From assembly GCA_011364925.1 (NCBI GenBank), contig RDOA01000068.1, positions 1-13,453 of the forward strand: 13,453 nucleotides of DNA, in the 5' to 3' direction. The notes under the pieces were generated by a model. The model saw only the letters and a list, made by a program, of their open reading frames with translations, ran no database searches and had not been told where the DNA came from. Numbering within the stretch: position 1 is the first letter of the stretch; each line of letters starts with the position of its first letter. Shown piece by piece: positions 5,572 through 11,383 of this stretch. This DNA comes from Promethearchaeota archaeon. GTDB taxonomy: Archaea; Asgardarchaeota; Lokiarchaeia; Sigyniarchaeales; SOKP01. The position numbers and the translations under genes are program-made.

Positions 5572-5638
5572 TATAGGAAAAAAGATAAACAGATAAAAAA
5601 AAGAGTTATTTAATTTAATTTATTTTTTAGGAGATGCA

Positions 5639-6310
5639 TCATACTTCTCTTAGTATTGAGGGGATAACATTCCCAAAATTCATAGTATTAACTAATCCTT
5701 CATTCTCATCTGAAGGTTTTACTATATTCACTATAGCAATATCCGCTCCGTTGAAATAAGCCTTTCTAACTGAATTTTGATCTAAACCGCCAGCAACAGA
5801 AATTAGGACTCCGTACTTTGAGCGTACTTTATTAATGTCCTTATATCGAATAATGCTCCTCGGATTAGCCTCTTCGTCTCTACCCTTATGAATCACCACA
5901 GCTTTCGGTTTAAATCGTAAAGGCTGTAATTTTCCTAACGGATTTTCTTGCCCAAGCATATCAATCATTGATAAAACACCGAACTGATCGCAAACTTGGT
6001 TAAAAAAATCCAGAGTTTCAGCTGGAGCAGTTCCAGCAGCTGTTATTGCATTAGCTCCTGCAGAGTGAGCAAATTGGACTTCCTCGCGAGCTCCGTCTGT
6101 CACTTTTAAATCAGCGACGACTAAGCCACGCCAAAGTCTCCTAATCAACCTAATTCCTCCTAATCCTTCCCTCTTAATGTAAGGCGTGCCTGCTTCAATA
6201 ATTATCCGGGAATCGTAAGGTATCCTTGGTAAGATATTTACAACATCTGCCGCTGTGTGGTTAAATGCGATTTGAACGTATCTTTGATTCTCTATAAAGG
6301 TTCTACTCAT
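5639..6310 (-). CDS. OMPDC/HPS (3-hexulose-6-phosphate synthase-like) TIM-barrel protein, atypical
   Basis: Motifs YVQIAFN, IIEAGTPYIK, VVADLKVTD, IDMLG, HKGRDEE, VAGGL and GADIAIV match the HPS domain of archaeal Fae-Hps. SD-like GGGGGT lies in the 15-nt gap after the SPFH gene. Confidence 0.85.
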   Translation of the reverse strand: MSRTFIENQRYVQIAFNHTAADVVNILPRIPYDSRIIIEAGTPYIKREGLGGIRLIRRLWRGLVVADLKVTDGAREEVQFAHSAGANAITAAGTAPAETLDFFNQVCDQFGVLSMIDMLGQENPLGKLQPLRFKPKAVVIHKGRDEEANPRSIIRYKDINKVRSKYGVLISVAGGLDQNSVRKAYFNGADIAIVNIVKPSDENEGLVNTMNFGNVIPSILREV

Positions 6311-6325
6311 TCATGAACCCCCCAA

Positions 6326-7102
6326 TTACGTAAATTTCTTAAGAATATTACCAATTTCAGATGGCATGAAAATCACAATCTTTTCTGACGGATCTTGAGA
6401 AATGTCTCTTATTGTCTGCAGCGTTCTAAGCTGTATTGCACCCGATTGACTTGCCATAGTATTAGCAGCTTCCGCGAGATTTTTGGCAGCAGCAAGCTCT
6501 CCTTCACTTGCAATGATAGCAGCTCTTTTTTCTCGCTCTGCTTCTGCTTGTTTTGCCATAGCTCTTTTCATTTCAGCGGGTAATTCTATTTCTTGTATTT
6601 TAATACTTTTAATATCTATACCCCATTCGTTAGTTTCTTGATCTACAATTGCTCGAATATCAGCGGCAATTTTATCACGCTCAGTTAATACACTATCAAG
6701 CTCCATATTACCGACGACATCCCTTAGAGCAGCTTGAGTATACTGCTGAACAGCAAATGCGTAATTCTCGATTTTAATAACTGCGTCAGATGGTTTTTCA
6801 ACTTTATAGTAAACAACTGTATTTGCTAAAACAGGTATGTTATCCCTCGTAATGACTTCTTGACGAGGAATATCAGCAGTTACGATTCTTAAATCCACTT
6901 TTTTTGCCTTTTCAAAAATTGGAAGGACATATACTACTCCTGGACCTATTGTACGTTTGTACTTACCCAATCTAAAGATTATAAGGCGTTCATACTCTAA
7001 AATAACTTTAATCCCAGCAAGTAAGAAACATGTAAAAAAAATCAAGACGACGACGACAATAGGTATTATTACAAATAATGGATTAAATCCTTGAAATATC
7101 AT
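6326..7102 (-). CDS. SPFH/band 7 stomatin-like (slipin) membrane protein
   Basis: N-terminal TM followed by 'EYERLIIFRLG', 'GPG', 'VDLR', 'QEVITRDN', 'WGI' and 'MAKQAEAEREKRA', ending in 'QLRTLQTI'. SD-like GAGGATGA upstream. Confidence 0.95.
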   Translation of the reverse strand: MIFQGFNPLFVIIPIVVVVLIFFTCFLLAGIKVILEYERLIIFRLGKYKRTIGPGVVYVLPIFEKAKKVDLRIVTADIPRQEVITRDNIPVLANTVVYYKVEKPSDAVIKIENYAFAVQQYTQAALRDVVGNMELDSVLTERDKIAADIRAIVDQETNEWGIDIKSIKIQEIELPAEMKRAMAKQAEAEREKRAAIIASEGELAAAKNLAEAANTMASQSGAIQLRTLQTIRDISQDPSEKIVIFMPSEIGNILKKFT

Positions 7103-7327
7103 ATTTCATCCTCTATTTTAAATTGTAAAGTTATGCTATATATAGAAAGATGGGATATTTAAATGTATTCGCTAAGAACTGTGAAATTGGGAGACATATA
7201 GAGCCCTTTTTATATTTTAGTTTGGATATATTATTTTACTCCTAAGAAAAAGGAGTTTAACCATAACTTTTTTAAGGTGAATTTTGTAGTATATCTTAGA
7301 AAGTAAATTATTCTGAGTAAAATAGAT

Positions 7328-7648
7328 ATGCTGGATGGTTTATTCCCTTTTGATATTTTTAGTTTCATAAATGGAATAATTATTTTAGTTTTTATTATTG
7401 CAATCGTTTTTTTTATAATTGTCATTCTAATTGTTTATAAGCTTCTTCATACGAATGTTGATAATGTCAAGAAGAGGTCTAAAAAAGCCCCTAAAGTTCC
7501 TGCTGAAAGTGTTGATCTTCCTCAAAAAGAATTAAAAAAAGATAATTCAATCTCAGTCAATAACATTACTAAGTGTAAATATTGCGGTCAAGAAGTCGAA
7601 GAAAATACAGTTTTTTGTCAATATTGCGGTTCAGACTTAACCCTTTAG
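7328..7648 (+). CDS. single-TM protein with a C-terminal zinc ribbon
   Basis: Long hydrophobic N-terminal helix, a Lys-rich linker, and CKYCG-x9-CQYCG at the C-terminus. Confidence 0.85.
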   Translation: MLDGLFPFDIFSFINGIIILVFIIAIVFFIIVILIVYKLLHTNVDNVKKRSKKAPKVPAESVDLPQKELKKDNSISVNNITKCKYCGQEVEENTVFCQYCGSDLTL

Positions 7649-7666
7649 CTTCATTATTAGATTATA

Positions 7667-9268
7667 TTAATTCAAAGTTTTTATCACATATAAGGGCCAT
7701 TTCTTTAGAATCCCTTTAGCGATTTTACCAGTTCTAACTCTATTTGTCATAACTGGTCTATCTTTTATGAAATCGACTGGTTTATCAGATATAAATTCCA
7801 AATCTATTGGGGCATTATCTTTAAATAGTCCTCTGATACAATTTGAAATTTCTTCGTAATCTGAAGGGGGACTAGGCAAGAAGAGCTTACTTATTTTGGT
7901 ATTATCTTCTTCCAATACTAATAAAAGAGAATCAGTGAAGTTAGGATATATTTTATTTATGCATCCTATGAGATCTCGAGGTTGCTGAAATTCAAAACTG
8001 GCTAAATCGAAATAATCTCCAACCAAAATTTCATATCGTTGAGGTAGATTTATCTCTTGAGATAATCTTATAGGATATTTTAATGTAAAACTACTTCTTA
8101 AAATTTTTCCATCTATAAGAGGTAAAGTTTCTTGAGATTTGATATTGATAACATCTCCAATGTCGATATTAAGAATTGGTTTATTATCTTCCATTTTGGA
8201 GACCAATAGCTTTCCAATTGTATTTTTAGAATTGGAAATTATACTTTTTTTGTCTTTATTCTCTAAAACTGGTAATGAGAGAGGTAGTACATACATTTGA
8301 TTTGAACGCGAAGTTTGAAAATTACCCAAACTCGATGCTATCGGTCCCACTTCTGAAGCTACATATAAATTAGTGAATCTTTCAAATCCTTTTTTCCATT
8401 TCATAAATCTTCTGATTAGTACCCAATCATTTTCTGAAAGAGAACTGATACTAAATACAATTGTAGCGTTTCGCAACTTTTCAGACAGTATTTGCTGTAT
8501 TTTTCTTGTAGCAGCAGTTATACCATTGTTCTTAATTATTTTTAATAATCCTTCTAATTGAGGATTACTTACAGATTTCAAAGATTTAACAGAGTTCTTT
8601 ATTCCTTCCTTAAATCTGTCGAAATCAGCCCATTTTAAAATTGTGACTGCTGGGGCAGAGATAACTGCTATATCCTCCAAATTTAATATGTTTGAGATGA
8701 CTTCTATATTTGTAGCGTTCTTGTATTCAAAGAATGAATAAGAATATGGTTTAATTATTGCTAGCATTATTCTTTGTGAAAACTCTGATGAATAGAAAGA
8801 TATGAATCTTGTCCCATTTACTTCATTAAAACCATCAATCTCTAATCTTGAGGGAACGAAAATAATTACAGAGTTCTTTTTATTCAAGCCACTTGATTCA
8901 AATATTGCTTGCATTCCAGGAGCCCAATATCTTCTTACATTTGATAGAGACATTCTATACCACTTTAAGGCGGATGTTCTGCTATCTGTAGTTCCTGAAG
9001 TGTGACAGAAAATCACCGGTCCGTCTTTATGTGGTTGCTTGATTTCGTTTTCTAAATCGATGGAAAAACTTCTGGAGTTAGTTTTTTCCTTTTGTATTCT
9101 TGTATAAAGATCGTCGACAACATAGAGCCCGGAATTATTTAGAATGTAATTTAAAAACTCCTGTTTCGAATTAATATCTAACCAATTGTTCCATTTAGTA
9201 ATTGAAAGATCGGAATATAGGTCATTAATTATTTTCTGGGTTTTAAGATCAAGATCAAACGAACTCAT
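7667..9268 (-). CDS. GH3-like / ANL-superfamily adenylate-forming enzyme
   Basis: P-loop FCHTSGTT...LK, motif NLYVASEVG (YxxSE), NIDIGDVI (GD motif), and a C-terminal K-K-W-P. ORF track starts at TTG 9277; the ATG at 9268 is more likely. Confidence 0.7.
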   Translation of the reverse strand: MSSFDLDLKTQKIINDLYSDLSITKWNNWLDINSKQEFLNYILNNSGLYVVDDLYTRIQKEKTNSRSFSIDLENEIKQPHKDGPVIFCHTSGTTDSRTSALKWYRMSLSNVRRYWAPGMQAIFESSGLNKKNSVIIFVPSRLEIDGFNEVNGTRFISFYSSEFSQRIMLAIIKPYSYSFFEYKNATNIEVISNILNLEDIAVISAPAVTILKWADFDRFKEGIKNSVKSLKSVSNPQLEGLLKIIKNNGITAATRKIQQILSEKLRNATIVFSISSLSENDWVLIRRFMKWKKGFERFTNLYVASEVGPIASSLGNFQTSRSNQMYVLPLSLPVLENKDKKSIISNSKNTIGKLLVSKMEDNKPILNIDIGDVINIKSQETLPLIDGKILRSSFTLKYPIRLSQEINLPQRYEILVGDYFDLASFEFQQPRDLIGCINKIYPNFTDSLLLVLEEDNTKISKLFLPSPPSDYEEISNCIRGLFKDNAPIDLEFISDKPVDFIKDRPVMTNRVRTGKIAKGILKKWPLYVIKTLN

Positions 9269-9323
9269 CTTAGACAATAATAAAAAATAAAAATAATATT
9301 AATTAAATTAACTTCTTTAGCAT

Positions 9324-10195: not shown

Positions 10196-11383
10196 GTGGT
10201 TGAAATTCGTTTTATATATCATATTATCATCTCGATTCTGTTAATAATAGTTGTGCCTATCCTACAAATATGGTTGTTATGGGAAATTCGTGGTGTAACG
10301 GAAATCTACACCTCAATTGGTTTTTATTCGTACTTAATTCAACCTTTTGTATCTACATTTATGATGGTTCTCCTTTATTTAGGTAGCATCAAATTAGAAA
10401 GAGATAAAAGGGGATTTAAAAGAATGAAGCTACTAAGGATTTATAGCATTGTACTCATCATAAGCCAACCCTTTATAAACTATTTCTATTCTTTCCCTCC
10501 CTTATTTCTTTATGGATTCATAATTTCTCAACTTGCCTCACTTACGGGTTATTTAGCGTTCTTCTTAGCTGGGATAAGCAATAGAGTCCAATATGGAAAT
10601 TATTTAGTATCAGGGGCTCTTCTCTCTATAACAAGTGGAATCACCAACGCGGTAAATTTTTTGATAGGGGGAATTGATGTTGTATTCGGTCTTCAATATG
10701 CGAGCTTTTTTACCTCTGCGATGTTCTTAACAGGAATGCTAGGTGTTACATACATCCTATTTTTTGGTTTGAGGATAGGAAGTAAATATCTGGTTTTGTA
10801 TAGCATTCTTTCTCTTATCCTCAGCTTTTACTTGTTTATATTAACGCCCTTCGCGGTTTTACTGATTGTATACGTTCCAGTCGTTTTTGGAATATTAATT
10901 TCAAGCAAATTCTTCGAACTAGGAAAACGGTTTAGAAAGGGATTTCGTGTTTTCATTACTCACGCCGTTGATGATTTTAAACGCTACAGAATTGATGACC
11001 TTGCGAAATTTTTGGAAGCTCAAAAAGAAATAGGTCGAGTCTTTTACTGTGAGACCGATCTTATCGGTAATATAGACCAATGGATGAATAAAATGGTCCC
11101 ACGGTGTCAGTTACTGATCTTTTTCTCTACTGAGAATTCAATCGATTCGCGCGACTGTACCACTGAATTAACTCTTGCTCGCGAACACAATCTCCTTATT
11201 ATACCGATATTGGGAGTTGGATTGGATTGGGAGGCCCTTAGAAAATTAGATTTGGACAGAGAACTAGGTTCTGTATACGATCCAATGGAATTTGAGACCT
11301 TTTGTACTGAAGTTTACCAAAACGTACTAAAATATAAGCAATCTGTAGCAACCGAAATCCCTGAAAAGAAAAAAAGGAAATAG
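10196..11383 (+). CDS. multi-TM (about 7-8 helices) protein with a C-terminal TIR domain
   Basis: Residues 1-240 are hydrophobic. From about residue 249 the TIR_2-type motifs appear: VFITHAVDD, VFYCETDL, LLIFFSTENSIDSRDCTTEL and IIPI. Confidence 0.88.
   Translation: MVEIRFIYHIIISILLIIVVPILQIWLLWEIRGVTEIYTSIGFYSYLIQPFVSTFMMVLLYLGSIKLERDKRGFKRMKLLRIYSIVLIISQPFINYFYSFPPLFLYGFIISQLASLTGYLAFFLAGISNRVQYGNYLVSGALLSITSGITNAVNFLIGGIDVVFGLQYASFFTSAMFLTGMLGVTYILFFGLRIGSKYLVLYSILSLILSFYLFILTPFAVLLIVYVPVVFGILISSKFFELGKRFRKGFRVFITHAVDDFKRYRIDDLAKFLEAQKEIGRVFYCETDLIGNIDQWMNKMVPRCQLLIFFSTENSIDSRDCTTELTLAREHNLLIIPILGVGLDWEALRKLDLDRELGSVYDPMEFETFCTEVYQNVLKYKQSVATEIPEKKKRK

Follow-up and report, generated by a model that had tools for sequence, protein, structure and literature searches.

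We describe a two-gene module, made up of a stomatin gene and a gene for an enzyme-like barrel protein, in a window of 13.5 kb (the whole stretch of DNA analysed, 13,453 nt at ~31% GC, which is all of contig RDOA01000068.1 of the Promethearchaeota archaeon assembly GCA_011364925.1). The stomatin, P0001, is a member of the SPFH family, and the barrel, P0002, is related to 3-hexulose-6-phosphate synthase (HPS) and the decarboxylase of 3-keto-L-gulonate 6-phosphate (KGPDC); we refer to P0002 and its relatives as N-type. The two genes are co-inherited across two domains of life, in Asgard archaea, the candidate phyla radiation (CPR), DPANN archaea and Chloroflexi, in agreement with a sequence-only reading of the window that had proposed a two-gene module, and the barrels form a family split from canonical HPS, with a residue pattern of their own on a shared fold. 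We consider it probable that the pair constitutes a stomatin-organised, membrane-proximal enzyme module, consisting of a scaffold and an active Mg2+-dependent barrel, which would couple a repurposed TIM barrel to a membrane scaffold. The two genes are as follows.

6326-7102, minus strand: stomatin/SPFH gene P0001, 258 aa (Pfam Band_7, PF01145)
5639-6310, minus strand: N-type HPS/KGPDC-like (beta/alpha)8 barrel gene P0002, 223 aa (Pfam OMPdecase, PF00215)

Linkage of the two genes was assessed in a draw of 400 genomes of the Asgard phylum, searched with P0002 and P0001 (as with the other genome sets used here, a sample, in which many metagenome-assembled genomes (MAGs) are incomplete). Matches to P0002 were bimodal, with orthologues of 57–87% identity in 74 genomes and paralogues of at most 40% identity, the latter mostly in frames of the size of fusions between formaldehyde-activating enzyme and HPS (Fae-HPS). 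Of the 74 orthologue genomes, 73 have a P0001-type stomatin (67–94% identity) on the same strand and directly upstream, the exception being a truncated 124-aa C-terminal barrel remnant with no stomatin nearby (L027:1519-1893, genome G029). A decayed barrel copy that is split by an in-frame TAG (G058:C46:22195-22837) still adjoins its stomatin. Carriers came from five families and at least three classes, and the stomatin and the barrel were the only genes common to 21 Asgard loci of different genera, the flanks of which vary. Chance would give nothing near this degree of adjacency. In the window's genus, 20 genomes have the pair and 21 do not; the half or so that lack both genes include some that are 98–100% complete, so the two genes come and go as a unit. 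A separate case is G239:C1:26049-27508 (locus L047), the sole barrel carrier among 54 genomes of genus g22, where the barrel is 74% and the stomatin 87% identical to those of the window; this pair groups with the window's genus in the trees of both genes and likely reflects lateral transfer or a binning error.

The nearest non-orthologous relatives of P0002, taken from a scan of 1.84 billion representative proteins, were 38–54% identical to it. A profile of 29 N-type proteins, run against one genome per prokaryotic species, then yielded 80 non-Asgard loci (taxon labels are as deposited, and several CPR-like sequences are labelled 'Gammaproteobacteria'). Most of these are from CPR/Patescibacteria, with others from DPANN (Woesearchaeota, Micrarchaeota), Chloroflexi/Anaerolineae, and single MAGs labelled Armatimonadia, Desulfuromonadaceae and others. 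A P0001-like SPFH gene lies within 3 kb of the N-type gene at 75/80 loci and within 300 nt at 59/80, and the five remaining genomes hold a P0001-like stomatin elsewhere. The mention of similar pairs in CPR bacteria that came with the sequence-only reading was therefore correct, and the gene-neighbourhood survey that it had called for finds the adjacency conserved in five Asgard families, CPR, DPANN and Chloroflexi, with ~150 paired genomes overall. The N-type gene is nearly always linked to a stomatin and never adjoins a gene for Fae or for 6-phospho-3-hexuloisomerase (PHI). The linkage is kept in three arrangements (convergent, stomatin–barrel and barrel–stomatin): at non-CPR loci (Chloroflexi, DPANN and others) the stomatin comes before the barrel with a gap of 0–54 nt, as in Asgard archaea, at CPR loci the genes are mostly convergent, tail to tail, and a few loci have other orders. 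As kin are not independent in the Asgard and non-Asgard counts, fewer independent events underlie these than the numbers suggest; from the several gene orders and the two domains, at least a few lines can be taken as independent.

Phylogenies of both genes (unrooted apart from the choice of outgroup), which had been suggested as a further check, place the HPS-like gene apart from canonical HPS and the stomatin clade apart from NfeD-linked stomatin. For the barrel, a careful IQ-TREE run on 60 rows split N-type proteins from canonical HPS and Fae-HPS with support of 100/99 and recovered an Asgard clade (100/100) and a CPR clade (95/91). The Asgard barrel clade is nested within a bacterial/DPANN 'operon group', and a larger quick tree agrees. 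For the stomatin, a quick search under a single model gave a CPR-linked clade (98) and an operon group (99), the latter divided into non-Asgard (94) and Asgard (97) parts. The main splits (CPR, operon group, Asgard) are shared between the two trees. The genome's second stomatin, which is encoded on contig C27 and is 33% identical to P0001, falls outside the P0001 clade, as does an NfeD-linked Asgard stomatin (L159).

P0002 itself belongs to the orotidine 5'-monophosphate (OMP) decarboxylase suprafamily (OMPdecase/HUMPS PF00215, E = 1.7e-15, 57.9 bits against a cut-off of 27) and has the strand-3 motif D-x-K-x-x-D in the form ADLKVTD. Its AF2 model is a confident (beta/alpha)8 barrel (pLDDT 91.5), for which the top Foldseek matches are KGPDC, in first place, and HPS (TM-score ~0.8, 20–25% identity), and its sequence matches in the PDB are to HPS (9lj9, 3f4w, 3ajx). 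With its best sequence and fold matches in HPS and KGPDC, P0002 might be taken for an ordinary HPS, active in formaldehyde fixation or detoxification or in pentose synthesis by the reverse ribulose monophosphate (RuMP) pathway, with a stomatin neighbour that is co-inherited without a functional link. We regard this as very improbable. All NCBIfam models for HPS, KGPDC and Fae-HPS score P0002 below their cut-offs, the best match being to the HPS half of Fae-HPS (NF009833, 140 bits against 274), with lower scores for HxlA (TIGR03128, 86 bits against 200) and KGPDC/UlaD (NF009831, 51 bits against 294), and the N-type proteins form the separate clade described above. Nor is P0002 the genome's RuMP synthase: a true HxlA is encoded on contig C36 (230 aa, 207.5 bits, above the cut-off of 200) and a Fae-HPS fusion on contig C54 (427 aa), which disposes of the concern that the HPS-like gene might group with verified HPS and be the genome's only RuMP synthase. 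PHI works with HPS, and the genes are commonly adjacent or fused. There is no PHI gene in the window, and the PHI-like genes of this genome are on other contigs and below cut-off (one just under). In five non-Asgard carriers (three CPR, one Anaerolineales and one Woesearchaeota), we found no NfeD, no PHI, which an HPS would need, and no HPS above cut-off, the N-type genes being their sole HPS-like genes. Finally, the link to the stomatin is kept over two domains and three arrangements while all flanks change.

The active site was compared with the HPS signature of 3ajx, which comprises D8, E30, G32, T33, P34, D59, K61, D64, D109, H134, G136, A164, G165, G186 and G187 (PMC5980557 Table 1). P0002 has 13 matches, including E39, G41, T42, P43, D67, K69, D72, D117, H141, G143, A173 and G174. 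Two changes, both conserved in the clade, depart from the signature: D8 is replaced by N17 on the first strand (beta1), and G186-G187 by N195 plus a 2-residue deletion, so that the beta8 loop is shorter and reads IVNIV where canonical enzymes have IVG(R/G)xI. In terms of motifs, P0002 keeps E39, D67-x-K69-x-x-D72, D117, H141-x-G-x-D145 and A173-G-G. At the positions of the KGPDC-specific residues T169 and E112 of 1xbv (PMC5980557 Table 1), it has Ala173 and Asp117, as in HPS. More broadly, the first strand of N-type proteins reads Y-(L/V)-Q-I-A-(L/F)-N, compared with Q-V-A-L-D in HPS and KGPDC, and the strand-8 loop is either V-V-W-K-x-F (the Trp-Lys form, in CPR) or I-V-N-I-V with the 2-residue deletion (in Asgard and the operon group). 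Across 54 N-type sequences, down to 33% identity to P0002, the residues N17, E39, D67, K69, D117, H141, G143, D145 and G174-G175 are invariant. Both genes of the pair are under purifying selection, with dN/dS against five congeners of ~0.02–0.03 for the stomatin and ~0.05–0.07 for the barrel; saturation at synonymous sites makes these figures approximate, though clearly far below 1.

These residues bear on the main rival to an active enzyme, namely that the barrel is a pseudoenzyme, a non-catalytic partner that binds a sugar phosphate or other small ligand, or docks to the stomatin ring, and that regulates or caps the scaffold in the way proposed for the OB-fold of NfeD. The replacement of the beta1 Asp by Asn and the deletion or replacement of the beta8 Gly-Gly/Gly-Arg phosphate loop fit such a partner, as do the scores far below the cut-offs of the curated HPS and KGPDC models and the lack of any conserved pathway neighbour. 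However, at 33–50% identity, bacterial and archaeal sequences alike keep the Mg2+ ligands, the Lys, the His and the second phosphate loop without variation, which is typical of retained chemistry; the beta1 Asn is itself invariant, indicating a tuned rather than a decayed site; and the dN/dS of the barrel is ~0.06. On balance we think a pseudoenzyme unlikely.

In the enzyme module that we favour, the SPFH1-type stomatin would oligomerise into a scaffold at the membrane, on its cytoplasmic face. P0001 has an SPFH domain (Band_7 PF01145, residues 33-202, E = 1.7e-40, 139.4 bits with the cut-off at 23.6), preceded by one N-terminal hydrophobic segment (residues ~8-30) and a K/R-rich stretch and followed by a putative coiled-coil region and a conserved C-terminal tail. 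The hydrophobic segment (8-30) and an Ala/Glu/Lys-rich helix region (175-215), both conserved, were recognised by reading the sequence alone. By the positive-inside rule, the K/R-rich stretch after the hydrophobic segment would place the SPFH domain in the cytoplasm. The barrel, a soluble protein descended from the HPS/KGPDC branch of the OMP-decarboxylase suprafamily, would probably be dimeric, as its relatives are, since the trans-acting Asp of D-x-K-x-x-D is kept. With its Mg2+ ligands and Lys/His retained, it may act as a Mg2+-dependent enediolate-type enzyme, aldolase- or decarboxylase-like, on a substrate other than ribulose-5-phosphate and formaldehyde; the altered phosphate loop and one negative charge less near the metal would fit a different substrate, perhaps one that is more anionic or membrane-linked. 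The stomatin assembly would hold or enclose the barrel at the membrane, where the barrel would take the partner position that NfeD has in classical stomatin operons.

In some CPR, this positioning may instead be performed by the N-terminal transmembrane (TM) helix of an anchored paralogue, and the K/R stretch after that helix suggests that the barrel faces the cytoplasm there. Such a helix with its K/R stretch was found in 12/87 N-type genes, all from CPR, and nine of the 12 anchored genes are downstream of a soluble N-type gene. An impression gained from the representative library, that all close relatives are membrane-anchored, was discarded, as a TM helix is present in only these 12 of the 87 genes from species-representative genomes. 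Tandem N-type duplicates were seen at 14 CPR loci (L062-L071, L079, L082, L094 and L117), usually followed by a convergent stomatin gene, and the second copy at 9/14 loci has the N-terminal TM helix, the K/R stretch and a low-complexity linker of ~80 aa. This layout suggests that the tandem copies could form a membrane-tethered heterodimer.

Several points weigh against an enzyme held by its stomatin. The physical stomatin–barrel complex is itself something that we infer, and an own membrane anchor is lacking in most N-type proteins. The convergent genes of CPR do not form one transcript. The change from Asp to Asn at beta1, together with the altered phosphate loop, could mean that catalysis has been lost and that the barrel has a binding or structural role only. 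Clustering of open reading frames (ORFs) at the 21 Asgard and 80 non-Asgard loci gave no third conserved gene that would point to a pathway, and a Pfam tally of 81 flanking or intervening ORFs returned scattered housekeeping families only, with no NfeD among the shared families. No stomatin–barrel fusion was found, either as PF00215 in 62 long stomatins or as long relatives of the barrel at E <= 1e-20; both searches are weak, so the absence of a fusion does not count against a complex. Three Asgard genomes have NfeD as well as the pair. Lastly, stomatins of the P0001 clade persist without the barrel, next to rubrerythrin in three sister genera and alone in a few genomes; in the stomatin tree, these rubrerythrin-linked and solitary Asgard stomatins are nested within the Asgard clade, and we therefore read them as secondary losses of the barrel. 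As an interface specific to the partner, we considered the C-terminal tail of the stomatin. This candidate was rejected: the tail is kept in barrel-linked and barrel-less stomatins alike and is thus uninformative on the partner interface. The same long public stomatin proteins include a set fused to NfeD domains (P0283, P0287, P0295, P0316, P0317, P0326, P0329, P0330 and P0288), several of which also have PF01087 (galactose-1-phosphate uridylyltransferase-like) and one PF02350 (UDP-GlcNAc 2-epimerase). Stomatins joined to sugar-nucleotide-type enzymes may thus exist, or such fusions may be gene-calling artefacts.

The rubrerythrin loci belong to genera g22, g23 and g16 (L142:3074-3952, L143, L144, L145:3115-3969, L146:2965-3960, L160:2901-3935 and L161:2058-3056). 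There, a stomatin orthologue of 59–66% identity is followed 70–130 nt downstream on the same strand by a rubrerythrin gene (284–344 aa, with two or three rubredoxin-like zinc ribbons), which occupies the position of the barrel gene; this may be a partner swap or a local accident. One could read it as the sign of a stress-protection module, in which the stomatin positions a detoxifying enzyme at the membrane, namely an aldehyde-condensing barrel here and rubrerythrin in the sister genera, and the presence of an Hsp20 gene in the window, along with the role of HPS as a formaldehyde-detoxifying enzyme, would agree with this. The rubrerythrin adjacency was seen in one Asgard family only, though, and may be accidental; the aldehyde chemistry is putative; and stress protection would be a special case of the enzyme module rather than a true alternative to it. 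We judge it decidedly unlikely.

Among known systems, the closest is the stomatin–NfeD/STOPP operon, exemplified by PH1511/PH1510 of P. horikoshii and QmcA/YbbJ of E. coli. As in that operon, an SPFH1-type stomatin is tightly linked to one dedicated partner and the gene trees run in parallel, but the partner here is a soluble HPS/KGPDC-like TIM barrel and not a membrane OB-fold NfeD or a ClpP-like protease. SPFH1 and NfeD1 are inherited and transferred together, with parallel gene trees, and 50 genomes were reported to have an SPFH1 gene and no identifiable NfeD (Hinderhofer et al. 2009, PMC2636767). No HPS-like barrel is among the stomatin partners listed in that survey (PMC2636767), and a full-text literature search over a limited set likewise found no description of the pairing. 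The pairing recurs in ~150 genomes, and the barrel thus seems to be an undescribed partner of stomatin, in the place that NfeD normally takes. A gene of the NfeD family (PF01957) in the same operon, as is typical of stomatin–NfeD systems, is absent from the window, from the genome and from the five other carriers examined above. The genome is rated 100% complete and yielded no NfeD in a search that was positive in 12 of 14 control genomes. Within the window's Asgard family, NfeD is rare (7/135 genomes, with 0/41 in the window's genus), and where present it has a C-terminal zinc ribbon and comes after another stomatin, 43% identical (L159:4874-5434, G181). Replacement of NfeD by the barrel at the level of the genome was nevertheless rejected on account of the three Asgard genomes that have both, so that 'replacement of NfeD' is valid for this stomatin clade only.

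Three further systems are informative by comparison. First, HxlA, the HPS of M. gastri (3AJX) and the archaeal Fae-HPS share with the N-type proteins the fold (TM-score ~0.8) and the E, D-x-K-x-x-D, D, H-x-G-x-D and A-G-G motifs, whereas the N-type proteins differ in the beta1 Asn, the changed beta8 loop, the separate clade, the sub-cut-off scores and the lack of a PHI or Fae neighbour. Second, KGPDC is the top Foldseek match and has the same Mg2+/Lys/His layout of the active site, but its Thr and Glu are Ala and Asp in P0002, and no ula or sgb genes are nearby. Third, in HflK/C–FtsH an SPFH cage encloses an enzyme, the client being a membrane AAA protease and the cage a hetero-oligomeric SPFH pair that faces the periplasm. 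By analogy, this sets an example of a specific enzyme that is organised at the membrane by an SPFH assembly, although the client here would be a metabolic-type barrel, small and soluble, and located on the cytoplasmic side.

Taken further, and only tentatively, the stomatin may form a ring or cage at the membrane's inner face that houses a dedicated sugar-phosphate enzyme, providing a protein-bounded reaction site for a membrane-linked metabolite. Such a module would be ancient or widely exchanged among CPR, DPANN, Asgard and Chloroflexi, and its SPFH scaffold would be the first to have a metabolic-type enzyme, rather than a protease or NfeD, as fixed genetic partner. To our knowledge, the role of prokaryotic stomatins is largely unsettled, and NfeD, the only well-known genetic partner, has not settled it. 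A second partner that is strictly linked and enzyme-like would offer a handle on what stomatins do, by way of the reaction that is organised at the membrane. The module is commonest in lineages with small genomes that are host-dependent or syntrophic (CPR, DPANN and Asgard), whose membrane biology is poorly understood. Closed Asgard genomes are among the carriers, which may open the module to tests in culture. In public records, N-type genes are labelled 'Fae/Hps', 'KGPDC' or 'OMP decarboxylase', and metabolic reconstructions based on such labels may assign RuMP or ascorbate steps to CPR, DPANN and Asgard genomes in error.

Within the window, the layout described in the sequence-only reading was confirmed: the stomatin and HPS-like genes are co-oriented and 15 nt apart, each with a Shine-Dalgarno (SD)-like site (GAGG 7 nt before the stomatin ATG and GGGGGG 7 nt before the barrel ATG), and a Pfam scan of the other 13 long ORFs found no NfeD, PHI or Fae gene, as had been stated. 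The elements around the pair are as follows.

7110-7145, minus strand: region 5' of the stomatin gene, with an SD-like GAGG at 7110-7113 and a TATA-like AT-rich string, CTATATATA, at 7137-7145 (read from sequence)
6311-6325, minus strand: intergenic spacer of 15 nt, with an SD-like GGGGGG at 6318-6323 (read from sequence)
5578-5602, minus strand: oligo-T tracts on the coding strand, T8 at 5595-5602 and T6 at 5578-5583 (read from sequence)

As the 15-nt gap is too short for a promoter of its own, the stomatin and barrel genes are probably co-transcribed. TATA-like strings are common at ~31% GC, so the promoter upstream of the stomatin gene is a putative assignment, and the oligo-T tracts, which lie 37–61 nt past the barrel gene's stop, may serve as an archaeal terminator, for which an AT-rich genome makes the evidence weak. 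The ORFs next to the pair vary among relatives, which fits a two-gene unit. A role in defence was also considered and dropped, as neither protein matches any PADLOC family. No tRNAs or Rfam matches were found in the window. Among its other genes is a 536-aa ORF without a Pfam match at E <= 0.001 (7667-9277, minus strand). Divergent from the stomatin gene, a 106-aa protein (7328-7648, plus strand) has one TM segment and a C-terminal zinc ribbon, and three close relatives (L045, L047 and L061), but not farther carriers, have homologues of it at this position. Further along, a 395-aa protein (10196-11383, plus strand) combines several hydrophobic segments with a weak C-terminal match to TIR (PF13676, 27.4 bits against a cut-off of 28).

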